Source: Clostridia bacterium
GTDB lineage: Bacteria; Bacillota; Clostridia; TANB77; CAG-465
DNA length: 64,000 nucleotides
NCBI GenBank assembly: GCA_045652705.1
Contig: JAZRUV010000039.1
Location: forward strand, 2,895-66,894
Reading direction: 5' to 3'
Shown: positions 8,028-21,344 of the stretch, piece by piece
Numbering within the stretch: position 1 is the stretch's first letter
How the letters are laid out: each line of letters opens with the position of its first letter
The notes under the pieces: generated by a model
Databases searched by the model: none
Told to the model about the DNA's origin: nothing
What the model saw: the letters and a program-made list of their open reading frames with translations, nothing else
Made by a program: the position numbers and the translations under genes

Positions 8028-8501
8028 ATGCAAGTGCAGGAAAGATTTATGAAAGAAGCAATAAAGGAAGCTATAAAAGCAAAGAAAATAGATGAAGTGC
8101 CTATAGGAGCTGTTATTGTAAAAGAAGATAAAATTATATCTAGAGGACACAATTTGCGTGAAAGTAGACAGAACAGTTTAAAACATGCTGAAATAATTGC
8201 TATAGATAGGGCGTGCAAAAAACTAAATAACTTTAGGTTAGAGGATTGTGATTTGTATGTAACAGTTGAGCCGTGTTTAATGTGTTCGGGAGCCATAGTT
8301 CAATCGAGGATTAGAAAAGTGTATTTCGGTGCTTGCGATGAGAAGTATGGAGCTGTAACTAGCGTGGCTAATGCTTTTGATATTAAGTCCAACCACAAGG
8401 TAGAATTTGAGCAAGGAATTTGCAAAGATGAGTGTGAAGGGTTAATGAAAGACTTTTTTAAGGAGCTTAGAAAAAGGAAAAAAGAGTGTAAGAATAATTG
8501 A
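8028..8501 (+). CDS. tadA: tRNA-specific adenosine deaminase
   Basis: The CDA zinc motifs 'HAE' and 'PCLMCSGA' are present, and the size and sequence are typical of TadA. Confidence 0.9.
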   Translation: MQVQERFMKEAIKEAIKAKKIDEVPIGAVIVKEDKIISRGHNLRESRQNSLKHAEIIAIDRACKKLNNFRLEDCDLYVTVEPCLMCSGAIVQSRIRKVYFGACDEKYGAVTSVANAFDIKSNHKVEFEQGICKDECEGLMKDFFKELRKRKKECKNN

Positions 8502-8515
8502 TTTAAATAACAATA

Positions 8516-8545
8516 AAACCATTCTTTTACAGAATGGTTTTGTTT
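8516..8545. terminator. Hairpin plus T-tract between tadA and the tRNA remnant (can act on both strands)
   Basis: AAACCATTCT / AGAATGGTTT stem followed by TGTTT. Confidence 0.55.
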
Positions 8546-8591
8546 GGTGCACCAAAAGGGACTCGAACCCCCAACCTTCAGATTCGTAGTC
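8545..8591 (-). pseudogene. 3' half of a disrupted tRNA-Arg(ACG): anticodon loop to CCA; island attL side
   Basis: The reverse complement is GACTACGAATCTGAAGGTTGGGGGTTCGAGTCCCTTTTGGTGCACCA. Its acceptor and anticodon-stem strands pair perfectly with the 5' half at 21144-21182. Confidence 0.85.
8583..8591. repeat. att core copy (left), TTCGTAGTC
   Basis: It is identical to 21144-21152 and corresponds to the anticodon loop region of the split tRNA. Confidence 0.8.
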
Positions 8592-8844
8592 GTACACCAA
8601 GCGTCAAAATAAGTATATCATTAAGCACTAGAAAAATCAAGCAAAAACGATACAAGCATTGAAAATACTGCGAAAAATCTTATTACCTTTGATAAAACAA
8701 AAATTTATTTTAATTTAAAAAAATATAAAAAAGTTTAAATTAGTTTAAGAAAAATTACAAAAATTGGGGTAAAATTGGGGTATAGTATAAGCAAATAAAT
8801 TTTATTCCCCAATTTTGGGAAAGGTAAATCAAAGGTAAAAATAT

Positions 8845-9198
8845 ATGGAAAAAATAAAACCAAGTTACTATGCAATAATACCTGCAAAGGTAAGGTATGA
8901 TGAAAATCTAAATAATGGACAAAAATTGTTATATGGTGAAATAACAGCACTAACAAATAAGAAAGGATATTGTTTTGCAGGAAACAAATATTTCGCAAGA
9001 TTATATAATTGTGATCCAAACACAATATCTAGATGGATAAGCACCCTTGTTAAGGAGGGATATCTAGAAGTAAAGATAGTAAAAAATAGTGAAGATTCAA
9101 AAAGAAAGATATACATATTAGATAATAGCAGACCAACTCGTAAGAAAAATATAGACGATGAACTAGACTATAATGATTATATAGATGTTGGATATTAA
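8845..9198 (+). CDS. Helix-turn-helix protein typical of Firmicutes mobile elements (replication-initiator / DnaD-N-terminal-like HTH)
   Basis: 'YYAIIPAKVRYDENL..GQKLLYGEITALTNKKGYCFAGNKYFARLYNCDPNTISRWISTLVKEGYL' is a winged-HTH pattern common at the N-terminus of element replication proteins. Confidence 0.55.
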   Translation: MEKIKPSYYAIIPAKVRYDENLNNGQKLLYGEITALTNKKGYCFAGNKYFARLYNCDPNTISRWISTLVKEGYLEVKIVKNSEDSKRKIYILDNSRPTRKKNIDDELDYNDYIDVGY

Positions 9199-9208
9199 TA
9201 TATGACTT

Positions 9209-9297
9209 CTATACAAAATTGTAGAGAGGGTATTATCAAAAATGACTATAGGTACTCTACAAAAATGTAGAGAAGGTATCTACAAAATTGTAGCATA
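9209..9297. repeat. Three iteron-like 25-bp repeats (CTAYACAAAAWTGTAGAGARGGTAT)
   Basis: The copies lie at 9209-9233, 9255-9279 (22/25 identical) and 9278-9297 (partial). Each contains the inverted repeat CTACA-N4-TGTAG. Confidence 0.7.
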
Positions 9298-9468
9298 TAA
9301 TAATATAAATTAAATATTATAAATTATTATTACAAGTTATTATATTAACAAAAATGTATTTTGAGAAAAATGTAGAATTTAGATAAATTTGGACTACAAC
9401 TCCAGATTTCTCTAAAAAGTACTAGACAGAATATTATTTTTGTGTTACACTTGTTTTGAGGTGTTAAG

Positions 9469-10740
9469 ATGGAAAAATATAGAGCAAGAACAATAGAAAA
9501 GAGTTTACAGTCTTTAATAACAAAATTCCCTGTTATAATGGTAACAGGACCAAGACAAGTTGGAAAAACAACATTGCTTAATTATATTGCTGTTAACTCT
9601 AATAAAAAAATAAATTATGTGTCTTTAGATAATTTATTGGTAAGACAACAAGCAATAGAAGACCCAGAACTATTTTTAAGAACATATGAAGCTCCAGTAA
9701 TAATAGATGAGTTTCAATATGCTCCTGAACTATTGTCATATATAAAAATAAAGGTAGATGAAGCAAGAAAAAATGCAATGTTTGGTGATGGTAAAGAAGT
9801 AGAGACTATGTATTTCTTAACTGGTTCTCAAGTATTCCAAACTATGGCTAATGTTAGTGAGTCTCTTGCAGGAAGAATGGGTATTTTGGACTTATATGGC
9901 TTTTCTACAAGGGAATTAGAAGGTGTAGAAGAAACAATATTTATTCCAGATGTTAATCTTTTAAAACAAAAAGAAAAAGTAAAAAAATTATCTACTAAAA
10001 AATTGTTTGAAAGAATATTAAACGGAAGTTATCCAGAAGTTGTAAATGGAAAAACAGATGCGGAAAAAACATCAGCATTTTATGAAACATATATTAGAAC
10101 GTATATTGAAAGGGATGTTAGACAATTAATAAATGTAAAAGACGAGACTAAATTTTTAAGATTTATATCGTCTGTTGCAGCGAGAACTGCTCAAGAATAT
10201 AACGTAAGTGATATAGCAACAGACGTAGGAGTAGATAGTAAAACAATTGATGAATGGGTGTCTATTCTTAAAAATACAAATCTTATATATATGTTACAAT
10301 CATACTCTAATAACAATGTTAAAAAAGCAATTAAAAGACCAAAGATATATTTTATGGATACAGGCCTTGCATGTTATTTAACTGGTTACCTAAATGCAGA
10401 GACTCTAGAGAAAAGTGCATACAATGGTGCTATATTTGAAACATATGTAGTTAGTGAAATTATAAAAACATTTACTAACAACGGTATGAGCCCTAGAATG
10501 AGACTATATTATTATCGAGACAGCAATGCTAAAGAAATAGATTTATTAATTATTTATGATAACAAAGTATATCCTGTAGAAATAAAGAAAAGTGCAAACC
10601 CTGGAAAAACTGCCTTCAAAAACTTTGATGTTGTGGATAAGTTTGGTCTAGAAGTAGGAGATGGAATCGTACTTTGTATGATAGATGAAATATTTGCAGT
10701 AGAAGAAAACAAATATTTTGTTCCTATAGAGTATATTTAA
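9469..10740 (+). CDS. AAA+ ATPase of the DUF4143-containing family
   Basis: Walker A is 'VTGPRQVGKTTLL' and Walker B is 'VIIDEFQ'. The C-terminal region 'YYRDSNAKEIDLLI...VYPVEIK' is typical of the AAA_14/DUF4143 architecture. Confidence 0.75.
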   Translation: MEKYRARTIEKSLQSLITKFPVIMVTGPRQVGKTTLLNYIAVNSNKKINYVSLDNLLVRQQAIEDPELFLRTYEAPVIIDEFQYAPELLSYIKIKVDEARKNAMFGDGKEVETMYFLTGSQVFQTMANVSESLAGRMGILDLYGFSTRELEGVEETIFIPDVNLLKQKEKVKKLSTKKLFERILNGSYPEVVNGKTDAEKTSAFYETYIRTYIERDVRQLINVKDETKFLRFISSVAARTAQEYNVSDIATDVGVDSKTIDEWVSILKNTNLIYMLQSYSNNNVKKAIKRPKIYFMDTGLACYLTGYLNAETLEKSAYNGAIFETYVVSEIIKTFTNNGMSPRMRLYYYRDSNAKEIDLLIIYDNKVYPVEIKKSANPGKTAFKNFDVVDKFGLEVGDGIVLCMIDEIFAVEENKYFVPIEYI

Positions 10741-10764
10741 AAAAATTAATTGTGAGGTAAAACT

Positions 10765-11256
10765 ATGTCAAAAGGTGATTCGAATTCTAAATTAAGATAC
10801 AATATACATGAACGAATGCAAGAATTTTTTGATGATGTAATTTTAAAAAGAGGATTGAACTATTTCTATGAAGAAAGAGTTCAAGATGTTTGTAGAGTAA
10901 AAGGAGATTTTTATTCTACAGTAGAAGGTACATACCCATATACTATAAAAATACAAATTAAAAATAACGACATTGAAGAAATGTATTGTGATTGTCCTTA
11001 TGCAGAAGAAGGTTGCTATTGTAAACATATGGCGGCGACTTTAATATATATCGAACAAAATTTAGAAAATATACTTACAGATAAAGACATAGAAAAACAA
11101 ATTGCAAAAAGAACAAAAGAAATTGAGAAGCATTTAAGTAATATTTCCGAGCAACAATTAAGACAATACATAGCAGATATTGCTTTAGACAATGAAAATA
11201 TATATAGCGATTTAAGAACAATGAGCACAATGAATAATTTTCACATAGTAAAATAG
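10765..11256 (+). CDS. SWIM zinc-finger protein
   Basis: 'CDCPYAEEGCYCKHMAA' fits the CxCx(n)CxH SWIM signature. It lies 24 nt downstream of the ATPase gene. Confidence 0.65.
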   Translation: MSKGDSNSKLRYNIHERMQEFFDDVILKRGLNYFYEERVQDVCRVKGDFYSTVEGTYPYTIKIQIKNNDIEEMYCDCPYAEEGCYCKHMAATLIYIEQNLENILTDKDIEKQIAKRTKEIEKHLSNISEQQLRQYIADIALDNENIYSDLRTMSTMNNFHIVK

Positions 11257-11353
11257 AAAAAATAACAAACAACAGTAACTCTAATTTTAAACAAGAGATA
11301 CTGTTGTTTGGCTTATATGTAGTATTTGACTTAAAATAACCAACTTGGTCATC

Positions 11354-11393
11354 GTATTACAAATGTAATACAAAATTGAAATTGTAATACAAG
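11354..11393. promoter_or_regulatory. Candidate operator: palindrome GTATTACA-AA-TGTAATAC plus a third TGTAATACAA half-site
   Basis: The palindrome is seen directly at 11354-11371 and the half-site at 11384-11393. Confidence 0.35.
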
Positions 11394-11589
11394 TTTAGTG
11401 GCTGTGCCTCTAAGATGCGCGTCAATGTGTCTTACATCTATTCCTGCATTAAGTGAGAAATAAGCCTAATAATACAGATAAATATATGTTTTTGCGTAAA
11501 CAGAGTGAACATTAATAAAACATATAAATAAGATGAAAAGGTATATGTAATGAAATAAAAATCAATGGTGAAAAACACACTATCTATAG

Positions 11590-11618
11590 TTGCAAAAAAA
11601 TGTTGTTTATGATATATA
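11590..11618 (+). promoter_or_regulatory. Sigma-A type promoter of the cargo operon (TTGCAA - 17 nt - TATATA)
   Basis: The -35 is at 11590-11595 and the -10 at 11613-11618, about 45 nt upstream of the ATG at 11663. Confidence 0.45.
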
Positions 11619-11662
11619 TCATATGAGTAAGTGTATCTAGAAACATGAACAAAGGAGTATTT

Positions 11663-12346
11663 ATGAATTTAATACAAAAGATTAAGCAAATATTTAGTTT
11701 TAATAAGACAAAACAACTTGAAGCACCTAAAGAAATACCGATAAAAGTAGATAAGCCTAAAATAAACCTTTTCGAAGACTTAAGCAAACAAACAATAGAC
11801 TTAACAAAGGAAGAAAAATTAAAACAAATATTAAAAACGGCGGGATGCAAAAAAGAAATTTTTTGGCGTGTAGATGATTTAGAAAATATAGATGCAGATA
11901 ATTTAAGAGAAGTATTGAAACTATTAAGTAGTATAAAATTAACAAAATATGAACTAAATGTTGTTTTAGGACAAAATATAGAATTATTAAATACAAATTA
12001 TATATTTATAGATGCTAACATACAAATATTAAAAGAATATCTAAAAGATGAAATCGTATTAAAGAACATTATATATACAAATCCTTTTGTTTTAACTAAC
12101 AGAATAGAAACGGTAATATTAAATGTAAAAGATAGATTTGATAATATAGGTTTATCGCAAAAAGAACAAATAAATATACTAGATGAAAACTCAAACATAC
12201 TTTCATTAGATATAGAAGTGTTAAATCAAAGTATAAATATAATAAAACAATATTATTTAGCAGATGCTAAAAAAATTATATTAGAAGATCCTAATATAAT
12301 AGGAATAACAGATATAAATGTATTAAGAGGTTATATCGAAAATTAA
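11663..12346 (+). CDS. Hypothetical helical-repeat protein (mTERF-like impression), cargo gene 1
   Basis: SD AAGGAG lies 5 nt upstream of the ATG at 11663; the ORF track start at 11645 lacks an SD. It shows repeated roughly 30-aa units such as 'TNPFVLTNRIETVILNV', 'ENSNILSLDIEVLNQSI' and 'EDPNIIGITDINVL'. Confidence 0.55.
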   Translation: MNLIQKIKQIFSFNKTKQLEAPKEIPIKVDKPKINLFEDLSKQTIDLTKEEKLKQILKTAGCKKEIFWRVDDLENIDADNLREVLKLLSSIKLTKYELNVVLGQNIELLNTNYIFIDANIQILKEYLKDEIVLKNIIYTNPFVLTNRIETVILNVKDRFDNIGLSQKEQINILDENSNILSLDIEVLNQSINIIKQYYLADAKKIILEDPNIIGITDINVLRGYIEN

Positions 12347-12356
12347 GAGGTATTAT

Positions 12357-13145
12357 ATGGATGAACAAGCAAAGTTAATGCTTTATAGACAACTACAAGA
12401 AATGAGTGAATTAAATCAAAAAGAAAACGCAGCATCACTTATTTCTGAACAAGAGTTTTTAGCATTATCAGCTAAAGAAGCATTAAAATACACATTTGAA
12501 TATAGAGATAGAGAAACAGATTTTGGCGAAAATATTTACTATTTAGAAATGCCAGATATGGATTTTTCAGGTCAAGATTTAAGTGATGTTCGTATTAGTA
12601 AGTTTATGCTTTCTCGTATGGAAGATGGTAAAAGAGTACCAAGTAAAATAAATGTAAATGGTACAAGAATAGCAATAAACCTAAATGGAATAGGAATAAG
12701 TGAGCAGTCACAAGATGAGTTGGGGATTTCAGACCAAGTTATAGATTTTAGCAATGTGGATTTTAGAGGCTGTGAAATAAGAGGTATATTACCTGACGAA
12801 TATGCAGAAGAAACAAAAGCAAAAACAAGAGGACAAATAACTGTAACAGGAAGAGAAAATCTAGATGAAAGATATTTACAAAGAAGGAAAGAACATCACC
12901 TTATGCCGGGCGAAAGAAAAGTTACAGAAAGAGCATATGCAAGACTACTTTCAGGTGAAACATTAAAAGGAACTAGAGACCAAGATAGAATAGACTTTAC
13001 AGATTATGACTTGGAAGGTTTATCTGAAGAACAAATAAGATATCTAATGGATAAGAAAGAAATAACATTAGACACATATCAAATAGAGTCAAATAGTGAT
13101 TATGTATCACAGTATAGAAAGCGGACAATTAAGAGAAGAAAGTAG
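12357..13145 (+). CDS. Hypothetical protein with pentapeptide-repeat-like stretches, cargo gene 2
   Basis: SD GAGGT is present. The stretches are 'MDFSGQDLSDVRIS' and 'IDFSNVDFRGCEIRG'. It lies 10 nt after gene 1. Confidence 0.55.
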   Translation: MDEQAKLMLYRQLQEMSELNQKENAASLISEQEFLALSAKEALKYTFEYRDRETDFGENIYYLEMPDMDFSGQDLSDVRISKFMLSRMEDGKRVPSKINVNGTRIAINLNGIGISEQSQDELGISDQVIDFSNVDFRGCEIRGILPDEYAEETKAKTRGQITVTGRENLDERYLQRRKEHHLMPGERKVTERAYARLLSGETLKGTRDQDRIDFTDYDLEGLSEEQIRYLMDKKEITLDTYQIESNSDYVSQYRKRTIKRRK

Positions 13146-14592
13146 AAGAAGGATAATATATGAATATGAGAAAGGAAATGCTACATATTTTAGTCAACAT
13201 ATCGATGAATTAGATGCTTGGACACGAGGAGAGGTATTTGAAGAAGTATTACTAATGGCATCCGAAAGAGAGGATATAGAGTTTTTAAAACAATACTTTT
13301 GTGAAGCTGGTTACATACATGGTTTACAAGATCAAATAATAATAAAAGCATATAAATCAGGAGATATAGAATTCGCACAGCAACATTTTGATGAAATTGG
13401 TCTTGCGGGAGGTTGGCCGTTGCAAAGGCAAATAATGATGACTTCCTATGAAAGAGGAGATATAGAATTTGTAGAAGAATACATTAATCGAGTTCATTTT
13501 GAGATCCGAGGGGAAATACTAAAAACAGCCTATGAGAAAGAAGATATGACATTTGTAGAACGACATCTCTCACATACTGACAGTCATACAAGGCTTGAGT
13601 TAGCAATAGCCGAAAGAAAAAAGGGAAAAAATGAACTAGTAAGAAAACTATTAATGGTAGAAAATAGTAAAAAGGAGCAACAAGGGAAAAAGACAGTATC
13701 TTGTTCAGGAAAAATGTTGAATGAAGCATTGTCTCAAGGAAAAATAGATAAAGATTTTATTATAGTATTAATAAGGTTAGGTTCTGGTTTAGACTACGTT
13801 GCTTATAATAATGTTGATGGTTCAACACCCGAATACATACCAACACTATATAAAGCCTTAAAATTAGAAGATGCTACTGTTAGAAAAGAAATTATAACAG
13901 AAATGTTAAAATCAGGAGTAAGTATTGATTCTAAATATGTAGCAAGAACGTATCATTGGGACAAAAGTGTTGAAAAAACAGAGATTCACTGCTTAGATGC
14001 AAATAATGGTGAATTAGTTCAAATAATGAGTGAGTTAGGTATGGAAGTGCCACAGGAAAAGCAAAATATAACCGCACCTAAAAGAGGGGAAAAGCAACCT
14101 AAAGAGCAAAAGCAAGATAATAGAGTTTTAGTTTGTGACTTCTTAACTCACGAGGTAGGATTAAATGAAGAAGAAATTAAAAAACTAGAAACTACATATA
14201 GGGGTTGGGGAAGAGATTTATATAGTCTATCAACAGAAAGACTTGGTATGCAAAAAGCAATTTTGGATTCAGTTGGTGGTACAAAAAGAGCATTTACAAC
14301 AGATGCTAAAGTATTAAATAATGACCCACAAGTTTTATATTCAAGACTAATGTTTTATAGAGAAAGTGGTATAACTGTGATGCCAGACAGATTATATACA
14401 ACATTAGGAATATCTAAAAAAGGATTTGCTAAAAATTTCGGAAGTAGAGTTTTAGAAAAAGGAAATATGGAAGATTCGGATTATGAATATAAACTAAAAC
14501 AAGAACTACTAAAAAGATACCCAATGCCAGAAACTAGAGATGAACTAAAGAGAACATTGGAAGAATTGAATAAAGAAGAAATTGGAGGATAG
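13102..14592 (+). CDS. Hypothetical multi-repeat protein, cargo gene 3
   Basis: It has four to five tandem roughly 32-aa repeats 'Y(E/K)xGDIEFxxx(H/Y)(F/I)': 'KSGDIEFAQQHF', 'ERGDIEFVEEYI', 'EKEDMTFVERHL' and 'EREDIEFLKQYF'. The C-terminus has mTERF-like 'LGLNEEEIKKL', 'DPQVLYSRL' and 'LGISKKGF'. The start is uncertain (GTG 13096 or ATG 13102). Confidence 0.55.
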   Translation: MYHSIESGQLREESRRRIIYEYEKGNATYFSQHIDELDAWTRGEVFEEVLLMASEREDIEFLKQYFCEAGYIHGLQDQIIIKAYKSGDIEFAQQHFDEIGLAGGWPLQRQIMMTSYERGDIEFVEEYINRVHFEIRGEILKTAYEKEDMTFVERHLSHTDSHTRLELAIAERKKGKNELVRKLLMVENSKKEQQGKKTVSCSGKMLNEALSQGKIDKDFIIVLIRLGSGLDYVAYNNVDGSTPEYIPTLYKALKLEDATVRKEIITEMLKSGVSIDSKYVARTYHWDKSVEKTEIHCLDANNGELVQIMSELGMEVPQEKQNITAPKRGEKQPKEQKQDNRVLVCDFLTHEVGLNEEEIKKLETTYRGWGRDLYSLSTERLGMQKAILDSVGGTKRAFTTDAKVLNNDPQVLYSRLMFYRESGITVMPDRLYTTLGISKKGFAKNFGSRVLEKGNMEDSDYEYKLKQELLKRYPMPETRDELKRTLEELNKEEIGG

Positions 14593-14596
14593 ATTT

Positions 14597-15400
14597 ATGC
14601 CATTATATAGTAAAAAAGAGCCATATCGTTCTATGTTAGAAGAATTAGAAGAAGAAAGAGCGTTTACTTTCAAAGGCTCATATATATTAGATGCAGATGA
14701 AAAAATGGGACAAGCAAGTAAAGAACTAGAAAGAATAATAAATAAAAATACTAAAGGTAAATTGCCACCAGGTTTATCTAAAGAAGAAACACAACGAGAA
14801 ATGGAAAGATTATCTACAGGTATAATAGATAGATTAAGAAGTGCAAACGGAAAGTTCAAAGCGTTTGTTTATTCTAAAGGTGGCTCTAGAACTTCTGCAA
14901 ACGAAGCACAACAAACAGAATTATCACAAAAAGGTGCAAACGTGGAATATACAGTTATGGTGGTAAATGGTGTAGCAATATTAGAGCCGTTAGGACAAGA
15001 GGATAATGCTACATATATAGCAGAAGAAAGGGAAGGTCTAGAAGAAGCAATAACTCAATTTGGCAGAGGTGAGGCTATAGATAGCGGAATAATCCAAAAA
15101 GTAATTCACGATAGAAAAGAAAGAGAAGGATACAACTATGGTTCTAACCATATATTACAATTATTAGATTATGCTATTGACGATCCACAGAGACTATTAC
15201 AAGTTGTTAGAGAGCATAATGGTTGTGGGCTAAAGAGAATATCTCAAAATATGCCTACTACAGTTGATGCTATTCATTCGCAAACAGATTCAAGAGTTGA
15301 TGAAATGGGAATTAGTGCTGAAGAAACAATAAAAGCAGGAACAGAATTGGAAAGAACACAAGAAATAAAAGGAAAGGAGACTCCTTATGAAAGTGTATAA
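14597..15400 (+). CDS. Hypothetical acidic protein, cargo gene 4
   Basis: SD GGAGGA lies 8 nt upstream of the ATG at 14597. It starts 4 nt after the gene 3 stop. No motif was recognised. Confidence 0.55.
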   Translation: MPLYSKKEPYRSMLEELEEERAFTFKGSYILDADEKMGQASKELERIINKNTKGKLPPGLSKEETQREMERLSTGIIDRLRSANGKFKAFVYSKGGSRTSANEAQQTELSQKGANVEYTVMVVNGVAILEPLGQEDNATYIAEEREGLEEAITQFGRGEAIDSGIIQKVIHDRKEREGYNYGSNHILQLLDYAIDDPQRLLQVVREHNGCGLKRISQNMPTTVDAIHSQTDSRVDEMGISAEETIKAGTELERTQEIKGKETPYESV

Positions 15401-15620
15401 TGATGAAGAGATAATAGGACTATGTGAGGCTTATCAAGTATATCAAATACTTCCAGAAGATTCACAAAGAAAAATTCCTAAAGAGTTTGTTGAAGAAATG
15501 GAAAAGTATGCTAAATACGATGTAGGCGTAACAATAAATTGCCCTTTGGATATAGGAACTGAAAAACTATCAAGAGAAGGTGTTAAAAGAATAGCATATA
15601 TGTGCTTATTCTTGAAATAG
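15387..15620 (+). CDS. Small hypothetical protein, cargo gene 5
   Basis: SD AGGAGA is present, and the gene overlaps gene 4 by 14 nt. Confidence 0.5.
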   Translation: MKVYNDEEIIGLCEAYQVYQILPEDSQRKIPKEFVEEMEKYAKYDVGVTINCPLDIGTEKLSREGVKRIAYMCLFLK

Positions 15621-15692
15621 GGGCTGACACATAGTAGAAAAAGATATAAGGTATAAATAAAAAATAATTTATAAATTTAAGGAGGTTATATT

Positions 15693-16301
15693 ATGGGATT
15701 TATAGATGATTTACAAAAAAATGTTAAGAGTGAAGAGGATATTGTAGGACATGTAGATAAAGACTTAGAAGACTTAAAAGGATTAGAAGTGGGTTCTTGC
15801 TTACACGAAGATTGGAGACAAACAAGAAGAAATGAAGACGGTACATATGAACCAAGATGGAAAAAGGTTAAAGACCCTAATTTCAAATTTGTTGAATCTG
15901 ATACTTGCAGAAAAACAGAGGAAGGTGTAGTCGAAATAGACATTGCTAACAGAAGTTTTGGTGAGTTATCTGCAGATTGGCAATTTGAAAATTTAGAAGC
16001 GGGAAAAGTTGTTGCTAGATTAGTTGGTGACAAAACTGAATTGACGCCAGAAGAAGTAGAACAAATGGCAAGTGAAATACACGATGAATGGTTAAAAAGA
16101 AATGATTGGGTATTTGATCCAAACTACGGAAACCCAGCTCAAGCAGTTCCTTATGCAGAACTTAGCGAAGAAGAAAAGGAAAAGGACAGAGCTCAATTAA
16201 AATTCGGCTTATCTCTAAATCAAAGATTGCTTTCAGGAGAAGTAAAAAAACAAGATCTAAAAGAGAAATTTAAATCTAACGAAGAACAAGTGGTAGAATA
16301 A
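15693..16301 (+). CDS. Hypothetical protein with RyR-domain-like modules, cargo gene 6
   Basis: A strong SD AAGGAGG is present. 'LHEDWRQTRR' and 'IHDEWLKRNDWVFDPNYGNPAQAVPYAELSEEEKEKDR' resemble the bacterial RyR-domain consensus (HxxW...YG...PY.eLseeeKe.DR). Confidence 0.5.
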   Translation: MGFIDDLQKNVKSEEDIVGHVDKDLEDLKGLEVGSCLHEDWRQTRRNEDGTYEPRWKKVKDPNFKFVESDTCRKTEEGVVEIDIANRSFGELSADWQFENLEAGKVVARLVGDKTELTPEEVEQMASEIHDEWLKRNDWVFDPNYGNPAQAVPYAELSEEEKEKDRAQLKFGLSLNQRLLSGEVKKQDLKEKFKSNEEQVVE

Positions 16302-16308
16302 ATTATAT

Positions 16309-16345
16309 TAGCGAGTTAAGTAAAAATTAACTCGCTATTTACTTT
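16309..16345 (+). terminator. Rho-independent terminator of the cargo operon
   Basis: TAGCGAGTTAA / TTAACTCGCTA stem followed by a T-rich tail. Confidence 0.65.
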
Positions 16346-16392
16346 CTGCAATTAAATATTATATAATTTAATCATTAAACGAAGGAGGAATT

Positions 16393-17673
16393 ATGAGAAA
16401 GAATAAATATAACGAATTGTCTTCTACAATAATGTTAATAATAGGATTAATATGTATTGTATTTGGAACTGTAGTTCAATTTTTATTAAAAGATACAAGA
16501 GATGTTTTAAGCTATACTATTACCTATGTGGGTAAATATATGATTTTTGCAGGTATCGTTTCCTCATTATTAAGCATTATTACAAAAATTGCTCGTATAT
16601 CTAGGGATAATACAATAATGAACTTAAAATCATCAGGCAAACTTGTTTATGCCACTAATTTAAAAGTATGGAAAAATTACTATTGGGGCGTAGATAGAAA
16701 ACATTGGTGTCATCTTTTGGTAGAATGGGAAGATCCTATTACTCATCAAAAGTATGAATTTAGAAGTGACAAATTATGGGTTGATATTGAGCCTATAATT
16801 GCAGATAAAAAAATCGAAAAGATACCTGTTTATATTGATAATAAGAATCCAAAAGTTTATTTTGTTGATGTAGATGAGCTAACTCCATCAAACACTTCTG
16901 AGAAAAAGAATAAAAAAAGTATTGTTGGTAACATTATTCTTATCATAGTTACAATAATTGTATTATCTACATTAGGAATTTTTGCTATTTTGAAATTCGC
17001 TCCAAACAATTCAACACTTGACGCTCAATTGCCAAATAGTAACGAACAGAGAATTCCTAACGAACTAGAAGAAAATGAGTGTGCTCCATTTATTTGTTAT
17101 GATGGTATTAGTGATATACAGAGTAAAGATTTAATACCTAAAGCCAATCAAATAAATAAAAATTTGCGTAGATTGTTAGTTCTTATAAGTTTAGGCGATT
17201 GGGAAAGTGGCGAATATACATTACAAGATATCGACAAGTTTGCATTACACTCTTTAATAGCAAACAGACTTTTTGATGAAGAAGATTATTTAATACTAGA
17301 AAACGGTATAGATAATGCAGCTCTTTCATCTCAAGATTACGAAAATATATTTGAACAAATAACAGGGATTACAGATGTTAAAGCTTATTTTGAAAACTAT
17401 TCATTAGAAAAAACTAAAGATGCTAACAAATCTGTATATATGGAAGATGATGATAAAACTTATTATATTGTTCCTTTTGGTGTAGGTATGGAACTCGGTG
17501 TTTATGGCGTTGCGGTAGTATCTGATGTAACTGTACAAAATGATAGAACTTTATTTTCTATTAAAACTTGTATCGTAGATTATGAAAACAATACATATAC
17601 ATATACTAAAACAACTACATTTGAAATTCAAACAAATGGTTTAAGAGTATATAGCTTCAAAGTAGAAAAATAA
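16393..17673 (+). CDS. Membrane protein with a DUF3592-like segment and a large C-terminal soluble domain
   Basis: SD GAAGGAGG is present. Two N-terminal TMs are followed by 'YWGVDRKHWCHLLVEWEDPITHQKYEFRSD...IPVYIDNKNPKVYFVD' (DUF3592-like) and a third TM 'IILIIVTIIVLSTLGIFAIL'. Confidence 0.5.
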   Translation: MRKNKYNELSSTIMLIIGLICIVFGTVVQFLLKDTRDVLSYTITYVGKYMIFAGIVSSLLSIITKIARISRDNTIMNLKSSGKLVYATNLKVWKNYYWGVDRKHWCHLLVEWEDPITHQKYEFRSDKLWVDIEPIIADKKIEKIPVYIDNKNPKVYFVDVDELTPSNTSEKKNKKSIVGNIILIIVTIIVLSTLGIFAILKFAPNNSTLDAQLPNSNEQRIPNELEENECAPFICYDGISDIQSKDLIPKANQINKNLRRLLVLISLGDWESGEYTLQDIDKFALHSLIANRLFDEEDYLILENGIDNAALSSQDYENIFEQITGITDVKAYFENYSLEKTKDANKSVYMEDDDKTYYIVPFGVGMELGVYGVAVVSDVTVQNDRTLFSIKTCIVDYENNTYTYTKTTTFEIQTNGLRVYSFKVEK

Positions 17674-17683
17674 ATATTATATA

Positions 17684-17712
17684 GGGGGATAGAGTTAAAT
17701 CTCTATTCCCCC
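17684..17712. terminator. Bidirectional hairpin between convergent genes
   Basis: GGGGGATAGAG-TTAAAT-CTCTATTCCCCC. Confidence 0.6.
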
Positions 17713-17731
17713 ATTTATTATCATATACAAT

Positions 17732-18703
17732 TTATATAGCATCAATACTTCTGCCATTTGACTCTTGAACAATTTTGCCATCTAAATCTATTTGTTCTTT
17801 AACTAATCCCTGCAACGATGTAAGAAAATCATTTGATTTGTCTTCTTTTTTTCTTGTAAGCTCTCTAGCATTAATTATTGCTTTTTGTTCTGCCTCGTCA
17901 ACTATTTCAGAGAGGCTTTTGCCTGGATTTTCTCTTTTAGCTTTCATCGGATGCATTATCGCATTATATAAATTATCAAAGCTTTGTGATAATTCTTCAA
18001 ACTTTTCGTGACCAAAATATTGCAAATGTTCATCTGTTCCATTTAACTGAGCATTTCTAAGAGCTTTAACCATTTTTTCATTTTGAAGCAAAGCTTGTGC
18101 ACTTTCGTTAAACTTACCAAAATAACTACGAGATATATATTCTCTTCCAAGTATTCTTGACATTATTTTCGATTCATCATCGCAATTAATGGCTTCCTCT
18201 ATACCAGTATGAAATTCTTCTCCATTAGAATATTTGCCAGTTTGTCCATCTTTATCCATATTTGTTTTAGCAATGCCCTCTCTCTTTTTCAGTTTCCCTT
18301 TTTCAACTTGATATTTATTATTATATGACTTTACTAAATGCCCCATTTCATGTACTAAAGTTGCAAGCACTTTCTCGTCATTTAAATCAGTTGAGCACAT
18401 ATATATTAAGTCTTTCGAATAAAATTTTCCGTCTCTATCAATTGGCATACTTTCAGAAAAACCTACTATTGTTGCTGGTATTGCTTGTGCCTCCATATCT
18501 GGAAAATATTCCTGATAATAATTTCTAGCATTTTCTCCGTCCTTTTGTAAATGGATTTCACAATTTGAAATTGCATCTAAAATCGTTTTTTCGTGTTCTT
18601 TTCCAAAATGCTCAATGAATGCTGGGATTATCTTGTGTAATGTCTCCATTAAATCATCGCTATATTCATATTTTTCTTGTAAACCATTAAAATAATCTTC
18701 CAT
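17732..18703 (-). CDS. Hypothetical cytoplasmic protein with a zinc-metalloprotease HExxH motif
   Basis: 'LATLVHEMGHLVKS'. The ATG at 18703 is preferred (AGAAGG lies 7 nt upstream); the ORF could extend to 18751. Confidence 0.5.
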   Translation of the reverse strand: MEDYFNGLQEKYEYSDDLMETLHKIIPAFIEHFGKEHEKTILDAISNCEIHLQKDGENARNYYQEYFPDMEAQAIPATIVGFSESMPIDRDGKFYSKDLIYMCSTDLNDEKVLATLVHEMGHLVKSYNNKYQVEKGKLKKREGIAKTNMDKDGQTGKYSNGEEFHTGIEEAINCDDESKIMSRILGREYISRSYFGKFNESAQALLQNEKMVKALRNAQLNGTDEHLQYFGHEKFEELSQSFDNLYNAIMHPMKAKRENPGKSLSEIVDEAEQKAIINARELTRKKEDKSNDFLTSLQGLVKEQIDLDGKIVQESNGRSIDAI

Positions 18704-18855
18704 TTTAAAACCTTCTTTTAATACACATCTCTTTTTTAATAATTTTACCATAAAATTTTTATATGTCTAGCGTTTCAAAACAAATAAAAGTAATTGGGCA
18801 GTTTAAATACTACTCTTTTATTGTGCCTTAAATTGTAATAATAACAGCTGATTCT

Positions 18856-19235
18856 GTGTGAAATTGTGTAAAAAAGCATTGTTTTTATAAATTTTGTCCG
18901 ATTTTTGATGTTTCAACTGTTTATATAAGTGAAGGGGTAAATAATATAATTTATAAAAAATCAAATAAATTTTTAATATTTTGTCCGACTTTCACTGTTT
19001 CAATCGATAGGGAAGTGAAAGGGTATAAAACTAATTGTAACAAATAAAGAAAATTGTGTTATTTTTATAAATCTTTTAATTATTTATATGTATCAATGAC
19101 TGTTAAGTAATGAAGGGATAGAAAAATTGATACTAAAAACAAAGAAGATTATGTGAAATTTTGTAAAAAGGCATTATTTTTTATAATTTTGTCCGACTTT
19201 TAGTGTTTGAAGGATATATAGGAAGTGAAGGGGTA
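18856..19235. repeat. Four diverged tandem units (period about 85-115 bp) with conserved boxes TTTGTCCGAC and GTGAAGGGGTA
   Basis: Box 1 lies at 18893, 18980 and 19188. Box 2 lies at 18929, 19015, 19110 (degenerate) and 19225. Box 2 starts 35-37 nt after box 1 starts. The outer units 18856-18939 and 19151-19235 are about 80% identical. Confidence 0.7.
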
Positions 19236-19357
19236 CGAAATAAGCAAGGTAAAAAATATATAATTTTTAATTTTCACATTTGTTATTTTTAGTTATATTA
19301 AGTGGACAGATTATTTATATAACAAATCCTTTCAATTTAAGAAGAAGGAGGTATATT

Positions 19358-19546
19358 ATGCAAGACGAAAAGGTATGTATTAGCATTGAGGAAGCAAGAA
19401 AGATGTTAGGCATTGGAAGAAACTTAATGTTAGAACTAATTAAAGTGGATGGATTCCCTTGTATAAGATTTAAGCGAAAAGTAATTATTAATAAGCAAGA
19501 TCTTGAAAAGTGGATTCACGAAAATTACGGCAAATATTATTATTAA
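19358..19546 (+). CDS. Excisionase-family / MerR-like HTH DNA-binding protein
   Basis: SD AGGAGG is present. 'ISIEEARKMLGIGRNLMLELIKVDGFPCIRFKRKVIINKQDLEKWI' is the typical Xis-type HTH_17 pattern. It lies directly upstream of the integrase. Confidence 0.7.
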   Translation: MQDEKVCISIEEARKMLGIGRNLMLELIKVDGFPCIRFKRKVIINKQDLEKWIHENYGKYYY

Positions 19547-19642
19547 AGATTAGACTTTACATATAAAGAGATGTTATAATAACTATGATTTACCTTTCTA
19601 AACGCTAATTTAAACATTTTCTTTATATTAGGAGGGATTGTT

Positions 19643-20924
19643 ATGAAGAAGATGAAAGAAAGGGCTAAAAAGGGCACTATAAGCGTTAGAAAAAGAAATA
19701 ATGGTTATGAAGCAAGAATAACTTTAGATATTGATGGTATAAAAAACTATAGATTATCTAGGTTTAGTTCTGTTTCAGAAAAGGAGGCAAAAAGAAAACT
19801 TGGTGAAGCAATAGCTGAGGCTTACATTAGGGCATCACAAGGAAAGGGGTTAAATGAACAAGAAACAAATAGGACATGTTCTAAAAGTTTGAGAAAATTA
19901 AAAGAATATAACAATGAAGATATTACACAAGAAATTATTTCTAAAGCAAAAGAGTGTAATAAGTTTAACAAGGTTGCTTTTGACTGGTTGGAAAAAAGAA
20001 GACAAGAAACAATGCCTAATAGAGCAAAAAGATTAAGCAGTAAAACTTTTGAACAATATGTATATAATGTTAAGTCTAATTTAATACCTACGTTTGGAGA
20101 ATACTTAATAAATGAAATTACCAAAGATATGTTTCAAAATTATATAGATAATAGAAATGCACCTAAAATGGCAAGGGATAATTACATTACGATGAAACAA
20201 ATAATGGACTTTGCAAGAGGGCAAAATTTAATTAGTATTAATCCTATTGTAGATATTGTGTTACCACCAAAGAGAAGAAAAGTGATTAGTTATTTAACAT
20301 CTGAAGAACAAGTAAAGTGGTTAGATTGTGCCGAGCAAGATGGTAGAGATTGGGCACTCATCTTTGCTACCATAATTCAAACTGGTATGAGACCAGAAGA
20401 ACGGTTGCGGCTTGAAATGGAAGTGTGTAAATTTTAAAGATGAGACTATATGTGTAGAAAATGCATATAAAGAGATTCAAATATTTGATGAGAACTTTAA
20501 TGCTATTGGATATAAAAAGGCAGATAGTAGTCTTAAAACTAAAGAAAGTTATAGAATTATACCAATGTCGCCAAGGTTATTTAAAATGTTAATTAAGTTA
20601 AAAGAAAGCAAAAAAGAAAAGGCAAAAAGGAATAATGTAAGGTGGTCAGATGAGGAATATGTTTTTCTAAATGAAAACGGAGGACCTTATGTATCTGAAA
20701 GATTAACAAATAAAATACCAGCATTTATTAAAAAGTACAAATTGGGGAAAGTAACTTTATATGGTTTAAGGCATAGTTTTGCAACATTATGCAGTGAAAG
20801 AGGTGTACCTGATATTGTGTTAAAAGAACTAATGGGGCACTCTGACTCATCTACAACAAAGAAGTATTATATACATGTTACATTAACAAGAAAAAGAGAA
20901 GAAATTAATAAAATTTGGGGATAA
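19643..20924 (+). pseudogene. int: Tyrosine recombinase (phage-type integrase) interrupted by one frameshift near 20399-20412
   Basis: ORF 19643-20437 ends '...TGMRPEERLRLEMEVCKF*'. The +1 frame continues '(NGCG)LKWKCVNFKDETI...' through 'GLRHSFAT', 'GHSD' and 'KKYYIHV' (catalytic R, H-x-x-R, H, Y). Confidence 0.8.
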
Positions 20925-20960
20925 AAAATACAGCCTTCTGTAAACTAAAAGCTGTATAAG

Positions 20961-21037
20961 TGGTGCGGCAGAAGGGATTTGAACCCCCAACCGACGGATT
21001 CGTAGTCCGTTACTCTATCCAATTGAGCTACTGCCGC
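20961..21037 (-). tRNA. tRNA-Arg(ACG), complete, carried inside the island
   Basis: The reverse complement is GCGGCAGTAGCTCAATTGGATAGAGTAACGGACTACGAATCCGTCGGTTGGGGGTTCAAATCCCTTCTGCCGCACCA. It forms a full cloverleaf with anticodon loop CUACGAA and an encoded CCA. Confidence 0.9.
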
Positions 21038-21143
21038 ATATATTAAATTGTATTTTAGTTTTTTGGGGTAAAACTGGGGAATGAAAAATTCCCAGACCCT
21101 GAAAAACAGCATTATCAATAGGTATAAGGTTTTGAGCGTTCGT

Positions 21144-21152
21144 TTCGTAGTC
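21144..21152. repeat. att core copy (right), TTCGTAGTC
   Basis: It is identical to 8583-8591. Confidence 0.8.
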
Positions 21153-21182
21153 TGACGCTCTATCCAGTTGAGCTATTGGTGC
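21144..21182 (-). pseudogene. 5' half of the disrupted host tRNA-Arg(ACG); island attR side
   Basis: The reverse complement is GCACCAATAGCTCAACTGGATAGAGCGTCAGACTACGAA (acceptor, D-arm, anticodon stem and loop). tRNA structure stops after that point. Confidence 0.85.
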
Positions 21183-21193
21183 TTGCGAAAATT

Positions 21194-21222
21194 ATTATAC
21201 ACTACCAAAAGAAAAAAATCAA
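21194..21222 (-). promoter_or_regulatory. Promoter of the (now split) host tRNA-Arg(ACG): TTGATT - 17 nt - TATAAT
   Basis: On the minus strand the -35 is at 21222-21217 and the -10 at 21199-21194, about 12 nt upstream of the tRNA 5' end at 21182. Confidence 0.55.
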
Positions 21223-21269: not shown

Positions 21270-21344
21270 GTCCCCTTAGTTAAATGGATATAATAAGCCC
21301 CTCCTAAGGGCTAGTTGTGGGTTCGATTCTCGCAGGGGGCACCA
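21270..21344 (+). tRNA. tRNA-Arg(CCU)
   Basis: GTCCCCTTAGTTAAATGGATATAATAAGCCCCTCCTAAGGGCTAGTTGTGGGTTCGATTCTCGCAGGGGGCACCA. The anticodon loop is CUCCUAA, the T-loop is GTTCGATTC, and CCA is encoded. Confidence 0.9.

Follow-up and report, generated by a model that had tools for sequence, protein, structure and literature searches.

Why would a mobile element that breaks a host tRNA gene carry, just inside one of its own ends, a complete tRNA gene with the same anticodon? The question is raised by a 64,000-nucleotide stretch of an uncultured Clostridia genome (GenBank assembly GCA_045652705.1, contig JAZRUV010000039.1, positions 2,895 to 66,894 of the forward strand), which we refer to as the window. 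A mobile integrative island of 12,552 bp occupies positions 8592–21143 of the window, with boundaries fixed by empty sites in related contigs, and it is inserted within the anticodon loop of the host gene for tRNA-Arg(ACG). We consider it likely that the island follows a break-and-replace strategy, splitting the host gene and supplying its own copy according to the logic of tRNA-dependent lysogeny.

The host tRNA-Arg(ACG) gene is split at a 9-bp core

The remains of the target gene flank the island:

8515–8541, minus strand: host intrinsic terminator (hairpin and T run), originally after tRNA-Arg(ACG) and now after the orphan 3' half
8545–8591, minus strand: orphan 3' half of the host tRNA-Arg(ACG), ending in CCA, with the attL core copy GACTACGAA at 8583–8591; repeat family D5
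21144–21182, minus strand: orphan 5' half of the host tRNA-Arg(ACG), GCACCAATAGCTCAACTGGATAGAGCGTCAGACTACGAA, with the attR core copy at 21144–21152; matches the empty-site gene at 39/39 positions

Comparison of the attL and attR sequences shows that the two junctions have exactly 9 bp in common, GACTACGAA, corresponding to the 7-nt anticodon loop and two stem bases. The 39-nt orphan 5' half can be read as GCACCAA-TA-GCTC-AACTGGATA-GAGC-G-TCAGA-CTACGAA and is followed at attR by ACGAACGCTC, which does not pair with TCAGA, so that no anticodon stem is possible. Past the core, the orphan 3' half (TCTGA...TTGGTGCACCA, 8582–8545) lies 12.5 kb from the 5' half and matches the corresponding part of the uninterrupted empty-site gene with 100% identity; a convergent tadA gene adjoins the terminator beyond it. 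When the halves are joined in silico across the 9-bp repeat, a perfect 77-nt tRNA-Arg(ACG) with CCA results. With no more than 9 bp common to attP and attB, integration splits the gene, and neither junction restores it. In the window ARAGORN predicts only tRNA-Arg(ACG) (20961–21037, minus strand) and tRNA-Arg(CCT) (21270–21344, plus strand); Rfam agrees on both (68 bits for the island ACG gene, 53 bits for CCT), and neither program detects a tRNA at attL, at attR or anywhere else in the window. A preliminary description of this locus had reported a shared core of only 9 bp, an attR loop followed by sequence unable to pair with TCAGA and no foldable tRNA at either junction, and all of its factual statements on the anatomy hold.

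To reach empty sites, we used a small protein encoded by the host on the right of the site as a query and retrieved the contigs that encode its relatives. Eight metagenome or metagenome-assembled genome (MAG) contigs (L011, L012, L015–L017 and L020–L022) carry an uninterrupted tRNA-Arg(ACG) that is identical to the joined halves at 77 of 77 positions and is preceded by the same TTGATT-17-TATAAT promoter. A divergent tRNA-Arg(CCT) lies 88 nt away, and tadA is directly downstream in L011, L012 and L015; in L011 a stretch with a palindrome, GAGAATGGTTTTGTTTTT, likewise comes after the tRNA. Since the empty sites carry the uninterrupted gene, 8592–21143 is the island and the anticodon loop is its attB.

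A query with the repaired integrase retrieved two species-representative Clostridia MAGs (L001 and L002) with the same anatomy, and a Logan contig (L025) provides a fourth case, in the attR form. The islands are 12.5, ∼8.3 and ∼6.8 kb in size, with ends that are 90–97% identical and middles that differ. The arrangement is not due to chance, as it is identical in independent genomes and the gene is uninterrupted at empty sites. Exact-sequence look-ups of two flanking host proteins returned no record. Scans of metagenomes with the host 5' half and the island P' arm, and of viral contigs with the island tRNA, the host anticodon region and the island arm, gave zero matches; three JGI contigs (L015–L017) hold the 39-nt query despite the zero scan, and these zeros reflect the content of the collections and not absence.

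The island carries a complete cognate tRNA

The island tRNA is followed by a candidate terminator:

20928–20957, minus strand: terminator-like hairpin directly 3' of the island tRNA (terminator scan)
20961–21037, minus strand: complete island tRNA-Arg(ACG) with encoded CCA (ARAGORN; Rfam, 68 bits), 77/77 identical in four islands

Exactly 106 nt (21143–21038) separate this gene from the core, and it has the orientation of the broken gene, downstream of whose intact promoter it lies. Its acceptor stem (GCGGCAG/CTGCCGC) and anticodon stem (ACGGA/TCCGT) are among the 16 of 77 positions at which it differs from the host tRNA (61/77 identical). In this respect too the preliminary description, which had noted a full tRNA of the same anticodon and orientation with differing stems 106 nt inside attR, was accurate.

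Two comparisons bear on the function of this tRNA. In an alignment of five distinct tRNAs (two host and three island), 105 of 105 stem cells are standard pairs, and compensatory double changes have occurred in 12 of the 21 pairs, compared with 7.0 ± 1.7 in shuffles. Among the four window-type islands, 0/77 positions of the tRNA vary, against 3–7/106 differences in the adjacent spacer. The tRNA has undergone compensatory evolution, and it looks functional. The identity elements for ArgRS and the recognition of the anticodon loop by TadA are well established. The island tRNA has A20, C35 and G36 together with the anticodon loop CUACGAA of the host tRNA, and charging and A34 deamination should proceed as they do for the host tRNA; because the loop is the same in both, the product of the neighboring tadA should deaminate A34.

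The identity of this neighbor is an observation in its own right. tadA (8028–8501, plus strand) is convergent with the target tRNA and encodes the deaminase that converts A34 to inosine in exactly that tRNA. The pairing is kept at the empty sites in L011, L012 and L015, and it is probably plain synteny.

The anticodon stem-loop of the island tRNA (20999–21007, minus strand) itself holds the full 9-bp core, GACTACGAA, so that another copy of the element could use it as a secondary attB, leading to tandem arrays. Such arrays have been speculated on for mycobacterial plasmids (PMC10865867).

An int–tRNA–core module is conserved in three integrase subfamilies

The nearest integrases encoded in a single open reading frame (ORF) are 50–54% identical to the integrase of the window. 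Two of these subfamilies, P0003 and P0005 (50–52% identical), also have a tRNA-Arg(ACG) ∼30 nt past the stop codon in the same convergent arrangement, with an orphan host 5' half ending in CTACGAA ∼115 nt upstream. The P0005 element in L008 is integrated, with the orphan 5' half, spacer and island tRNA in succession and the 3' half ∼10 kb away. For P0003, both attR and attP are represented. At attR (L004 and L006), the host half GCGTTTG...TTCGG is followed by CTACGAA and then CTATATAACC; at attP (L005 and L007), the left end of the island, ...GAATGTTCAA, is followed by CTACGAA and again CTATATAACC, with the first island gene beyond. The two share exactly CTACGAA, and the crossover segment is the anticodon loop. 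The stems of the three host tRNAs differ and CUACGAA is common to all of them; the three island tRNAs likewise differ from one another.

The int–tRNA–core module is thus conserved in three integrase subfamilies. As to whether attP always carries a full tRNA, a check proposed in the preliminary description, it does so in all three tRNA-Arg-targeting subfamilies examined, with one attP seen directly: the attP form is seen only for the P0003 relative, and that of the window type is predicted as the TTGGTGTAC-GACTACGAA-ACGAACGCTC junction.

Two relatives depart from this picture. In L008, pairing of the orphan 5' half (acceptor GTACTCA, ∼11538–11500, minus strand) with the 3' half (TGGGTGC, ∼1255–1205, minus strand) is possible only with two G-U pairs, which may reflect decay of the orphan after an older insertion, and the host gene order around the site differs from that of the window clade. 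The closest in-frame integrase, P0002 (54% identical; L009 2527–2700 and L010), adjoins a tRNA-Thr(CGT)-like 3' half whose loop is TTCGTAA. Its target and orientation are different and the tRNA is not rebuilt at that junction; no complete tRNA occurs near it in 7.3 kb of a short, N-masked contig, on which breaking and restoring cannot be told apart.

The integrase is interrupted by a conserved frameshift and is under purifying selection

19643–20924, plus strand: tyrosine integrase in two overlapping frames (Phage_int_SAM_3, Phage_int_M and Phage_integrase; Pfam, both parts)

The integrase is split into ORFs of 264 and 170 aa. Frame 0 ends with ...ATG AGA CCA GAA GAA (20401), and an extra C at 20402 places the rest, beginning GCGLKWK... 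and including the RHSFAT...GH...Y motifs, in the +1 frame; the catalytic Arg is upstream of the shift. The shift site (window 20387–20440, shift 20401/20402) reads CCA GAA GAA / C GGT TGY GGC, and relatives without the extra C are in frame and read MRPEEGCGLKW. The same extra C is present in all four window-type islands (window, L001, L002 and L025) and in a lineage that is only 48% identical (L023 and L024), in which the +1 frame is open to the end of the contig. The shift positions in these contigs are 10745- (L001), 10745- (L002), ∼2250 (L025), 2306- (L023) and 1634- (L024).

Each part of the integrase has a dN/dS of 0.02–0.14 in its own frame, and each of the three overlap substitutions is synonymous when read in the +1 frame but non-synonymous when read in frame 0. 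The integrase is therefore under purifying selection. At the shift, frame 0 reads CGG, which is the least used arginine codon, with 6 occurrences per 13,311 host codons in the window, and no conserved start codon is present for the downstream part. The most economical candidate reading is a programmed +1 ribosomal frameshift at a hungry CGG codon. A literature search of a limited collection found no precedent for programmed frameshifting in tyrosine integrases.

Divergence at synonymous sites was compared for island and host genes:

int (island): dS 0.11–0.20
HTH36 gene (island): dS 0.27–0.40
rpoB (host): dS 0.22–0.41
spmA/spmB (host): dS 0.9–2.8

The orphan halves do not show a single substitution among the occupied genomes, and host intergenic DNA differs by up to ∼30%. 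The low island dS and the unmutated orphan halves indicate that the islands are younger than the split between their hosts. The same site has been hit repeatedly as the element moved between related hosts.

Possible dependence of the host on the island tRNA

What would be the consequence of breaking this gene? The codons CGU, CGC and CGA, which in bacteria are normally read only by tRNA-Arg(ICG), account for 109 of 13,311 host codons in the window, essential genes included. A single-copy tRNA-Arg(ACG) gene would for this reason be essential. Every tRNA-Arg-targeting subfamily has retained a cognate tRNA, an argument for its being required in many hosts at the least.

In the mechanism that we propose, an island encoding a tyrosine integrase, Xis and a replication-initiator-like helix–turn–helix (HTH) protein would have recombined inside the 7-nt anticodon loop and would compensate for the broken gene with a complete tRNA-Arg(ACG) in the integrase-proximal arm of attP. 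The island tRNA would then substitute for the host tRNA. Since both halves are intact, precise excision by Int and Xis across the 9-bp core would rebuild the host gene. The island is consequently not locked in and is not a simple addiction device. The dependence would concern the survival of integrants, by analogy with phage systems. Break-and-replace, as put forward in the preliminary description, stands as regards the break at the 9-bp core, the lack of rebuilding and the cognate tRNA. Its further proposal, a host that depends on the island for decoding CGN codons if no other tRNA-Arg(ACG) copy exists, stays conjectural.

Promoters that could drive the island tRNA

The sequences on either side of the predicted attP core and the host promoter are the following:

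8592–8844, minus strand: left arm (P arm of the predicted attP), with an outward promoter-like site and two TACCCCAAT repeats (8763–8771 and 8774–8782)
21038–21143, minus strand: spacer (P' arm of the predicted attP), 106 nt, with a hairpin (∼21107–21058), one TACCCCAAA motif (21070–21062) and a weak promoter-like site
21194–21222, minus strand: host tRNA-Arg(ACG) promoter, TTGATT-17-TATAAT, 10/12 in the scan and intact, with a −10 element that ends 11 nt before the former mature 5' end

Alignments show the host tRNA promoter to be conserved at both empty and occupied sites. The promoter scan found no site scoring at least 9/12 in 21038–21143, and the terminator scan found no terminator-like site between the host promoter and the island tRNA. 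At the other end of the island, the left arm, which is nearly identical in L001 and L002 in the alignment, contains an outward promoter-like site, TTGATT-17-TATACT with an extended −10 (TG), at 8640–8612 on the minus strand, whose −35 element is the same as that of the host tRNA promoter. It aims into the orphan 3' half when the island is integrated and, in the circle, across attP at the island tRNA. At the thresholds used, promoter-like sites are about as frequent in shuffled AT-rich sequence, and the promoter assignments are therefore predictions.

After integration, the intact host tRNA promoter lies upstream of the island tRNA, and the two are not separated by a terminator. Transcription in the integrated state would be mainly from this captured promoter: read-through would produce a leader of ∼150 nt, from which cleavage by RNase P would free the island tRNA. 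Integration may in this way exchange the left-arm promoter of the circle for the host tRNA promoter.

The arms were also searched for integrase-binding motifs. The TACCCCAAT repeats may be arm-type integrase sites. Three of the four matches to TAYCCCAAW fall in the att arms, which is not significant window-wide. The motif WTTCCCCA was rejected as an arm-type motif because it is enriched window-wide and is not specific to the att arms.

Alternative explanations

Could the arrangement be an ordinary tRNA-regenerating integration that has been misread, with the complete tRNA being the host gene and the 5' half older debris? Fragments of tRNA genes are common beside intact tRNA genes at island hot spots, which would fit this idea. 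It is refuted by the empty sites, and we leave it practically no weight: the tRNA found there, 88 nt from tRNA-Arg(CCT), is of the GCACCAA type, with no GCGGCAG-type gene; the matching 3' half lies 12.5 kb away beside tadA, exactly as at empty sites; and the GCGGCAG tRNA travels with the integrase. Very improbable, too, is that the island is a dead, vertically inherited remnant in which the integrase is a frameshifted pseudogene and the arrangement a frozen accident. The split of the integrase into 264- and 170-aa ORFs would fit such a remnant, as would the similar ranking of island and host divergence, in which L001 is closer than L002 for both. However, a pseudogene is difficult to reconcile with the low dN/dS of both parts, with overlap substitutions that are synonymous in the +1 frame or with the retention of the same shift in a lineage only 48% identical; nor does vertical inheritance account for an island dS far below that of host spmA/spmB, for orphan halves with zero substitutions next to intergenic DNA that has diverged so far, or for empty sites in most related contigs. 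A more substantial alternative, which we nevertheless regard as unlikely, is that the island tRNA is an accessory extra copy in a host with other tRNA-Arg(ACG) genes, kept for dosage, protection from an anticodon nuclease or attP architecture. Many Firmicutes have several tRNA-Arg(ACG) genes, and our tRNA count covers the 64-kb window only. The island cargo includes candidate defence genes, and counter-defence has been raised as a possible selective force in Hatfull's discussion (PMC10865867). This explanation does not predict that every tRNA-Arg-targeting subfamily should keep a cognate tRNA with the anticodon of the broken gene, or that the structure of the tRNA should be maintained by compensatory change. 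A loop identical to that of the host offers no escape from a loop-specific nuclease, and the host gene at empty sites is solitary, bears a promoter and is perfectly conserved across species whose synonymous sites are saturated.

The break-and-replace reading also has points that count against it, which we gather here. Other tRNA-Arg(ACG) copies in the genome, if any, would make the island copy unneeded. No attP form of a window-type island was found, the additional contig L025 again being in the attR form, and the interrupted frame makes the activity of the integrase dependent on a putative recoding event. With respect to expression, a relaxed scan detects TTCCCC-18-TAAAAT (8/12) at 21081–21052, with a −10 element that ends 14 nt upstream of the island tRNA; the L008 spacer contains CTGACG-18-TATAAT (10/12); and the leader forms a strong, long hairpin (fold z = −3.07) that is not a canonical terminator. 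This hairpin may block read-through, an idea that we do not reject outright, although a longer stem takes up its U tract in base pairs and no terminator is called there by the scan. Owing to the weak internal site, the L008 site and the leader hairpin, the data do not demand transcription from the host promoter; the lack of an intervening terminator makes it plausible, and its chances are close to even. The preliminary description, which saw an intact host promoter and no comparably good one in the spacer, is correct on both points, as the only spacer site of the window type is the weak 8/12 one. That the island tRNA is instead transcribed from the island's own signals, with its place behind the host promoter being incidental, has in our view slightly less than an even chance. 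The candidates are the weak spacer promoter and, in the circular form, the left-arm outward promoter that faces the tRNA across attP; the L008 site points in the same direction, and the tRNA of phage Fionnbharth has a demonstrated promoter of its own (PMC10865867). On the other side, the internal site of the window type is poor, with a −35 element matching only 3/6 positions, and such sites are equally frequent in shuffled AT-rich sequence. Moreover, the co-orientation and a core distance of ∼106–115 nt have been kept across integrases that are only 50% identical, and no terminator separates the host promoter from the tRNA. A further proposal, improbable in our view, combines a promoter swap with a translational gate. 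In the swap, the tRNA would be driven weakly or not at all in the circle, by the left-arm promoter across attP, and the host promoter would be captured as the host gene is destroyed, so that the native expression level would be automatic; in the gate, a conserved programmed +1 frameshift at the very rare CGG codon would be needed for full-length integrase. If this is true, the arginine-decoding state of the cell would tune recombination, in an element whose way of life centers on an arginine tRNA.

Gene content of the island

Apart from the integrase and the tRNA, the island contains the following:

8845–9198, plus strand: HTH_36 protein, the first island gene, like the N-terminal part of replication initiators (Pfam PF13730, 3e-14)
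9469–10740, plus strand: AAA_14/DUF4143 ATPase, cargo (PADLOC candidate defence family PDC-S01)
10765–11256, plus strand: SWIM zinc-finger protein, cargo (PDC-S62-like, PADLOC)
11645–18751, mixed strands: variable cargo, with an mTERF-like gene, several ORFs without a family and one minus-strand ORF
19358–19546, plus strand: Xis/recombination directionality factor, an excisionase-type HTH_17 protein of 62 aa from ATG (Pfam PF12728, 6e-08)

The HTH_36 protein matches the PHROG category replication initiation protein (2e-26) and has a dN/dS of 0.05–0.09 between islands. PHROG matches are confined to this first island protein and are led by replication-initiator-like families, and Pfam and PHROG searches detected no phage capsid, tail, terminase, structural or lysis genes on the island. 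The same 62-aa xis gene lies upstream of int in all relatives, and the variable cargo (11645–18751) differs among the window, L001 and L002.

Related cargo also occurs on its own. A cassette lies between tadA and an intact host tRNA-Arg(ACG) in L020 (6546–9632), in L021 (same coordinates) and in L022 (3–2162), contigs that are without an integrase, Xis or island tRNA. Its AAA_14/DUF4143 and SWIM genes have 93.5% nucleotide identity to the window island (compare window 9363–11284), and its DUF6904 and UPF0158 genes have the sizes and arrangement found in the L001 island.

Comparison with known systems

Integration into tRNA genes at the anticodon loop is not itself unusual. Williams is said to have defined, in 2002, an anticodon-loop class of tRNA integration sites in which crossover takes place in the 7-nt loop flanked by the symmetric stem. 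In the canonical elements, attP carries the tRNA from the crossover to its 3' end, with ∼40 bp or more of identity, and the gene is restored. The islands described here resemble canonical anticodon-loop islands and prophages in their crossover within a 7-nt loop with a symmetric stem and in the position of int beside att; they differ in that they share the loop only (7–9 bp) and bring a whole separate gene. The restoring 3' segment is missing: after the core, the island side is ACGAACGCTC in the window and CTATATAACC in the P0003 type.

The closest parallel is found among the actinobacteriophages. The preliminary description considered the strategy unusual; it has, however, already been described and tested as tRNA-dependent lysogeny in Fionnbharth/K4, the Cluster L phages, Cain and Gaia, for which the requirement for the phage tRNA was demonstrated experimentally and the cores are 8–17 bp in length (Guerrero-Bustamante and Hatfull, mBio 2024, PMC10865867). 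Four of the six defining features of that system are present in the island. The integrase is of the lambda-like tyrosine type in both, with a +1 frameshift required here; attB is inside a host tRNA gene; the core is short (8–17 bp there and 9 bp here), with no rebuilding at attL or attR; and a cognate tRNA is borne by the element, here also in the P0003 and P0005 subfamilies (PMC10865867). As in Gaia, the tRNA is downstream of int (PMC10865867).

The differences lie in the nature of the element, the target and the evidence. The phages are temperate and infect actinobacteria, whereas the element in the uncultured Clostridia is a 7–12 kb island in which no virion genes were found; in place of a temperate phage, we find elements of 6.8–12.5 kb with variable cargo and candidate defence genes. 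The targets are tRNA-Lys, tRNA-Leu and tRNA-Ile2 in the phages and tRNA-Arg(ACG) in the islands. In Fionnbharth, the tRNA gene lies far from attP and a promoter of its own has been demonstrated, whereas that of the Clostridia island is inside the att–int module and shares the orientation of the broken gene, whose promoter lies upstream of it. For the phages, experiments established essentiality and complementation; for the island, both are predictions.

Two further systems bear on the comparison. Prophage Lj965 of Lactobacillus johnsonii, as cited in PMC10865867, is a likely case in the Firmicutes, in which the tRNA is not rebuilt at the junction and the prophage carries a cognate tRNA; Lj965 is a prophage and not an island. 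In Sinorhizobium meliloti, phage-related sequences substitute a host tRNA by a foreign one, so that, as here, the element supplies a tRNA of the same isoacceptor type in place of the host's own gene (PMC11476347). Those elements are phage-related and belong to the Alphaproteobacteria, and the likeness noted here concerns the tRNA substitution. The strategy is thus not new; what is new is its setting, namely a non-phage island, the Clostridia and a tRNA-Arg(ACG) target.

Implications

Programs for mapping islands that look for a regenerated tRNA together with a displaced 3' fragment will place elements of this kind wrongly, and annotators will mistake the island tRNA for that of the host. A separate lead for experiments is the +1 frameshift conserved in the integrase. 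For the biology of integrating elements, the locus extends break-and-replace from actinobacteriophages to a non-phage island family of another phylum, adds tRNA-Arg(ACG) to its targets with both the empty site and an attP form documented, and reveals a compact int–tRNA–core module that has been kept by integrases no more than 50% identical. An advantage of the design also suggests itself. Because the element brings its own gene, only homology to the universal CUACGAA loop is needed, and the combination of a universal loop target with a self-supplied tRNA would allow entry into hosts with differing tRNA-Arg sequences.

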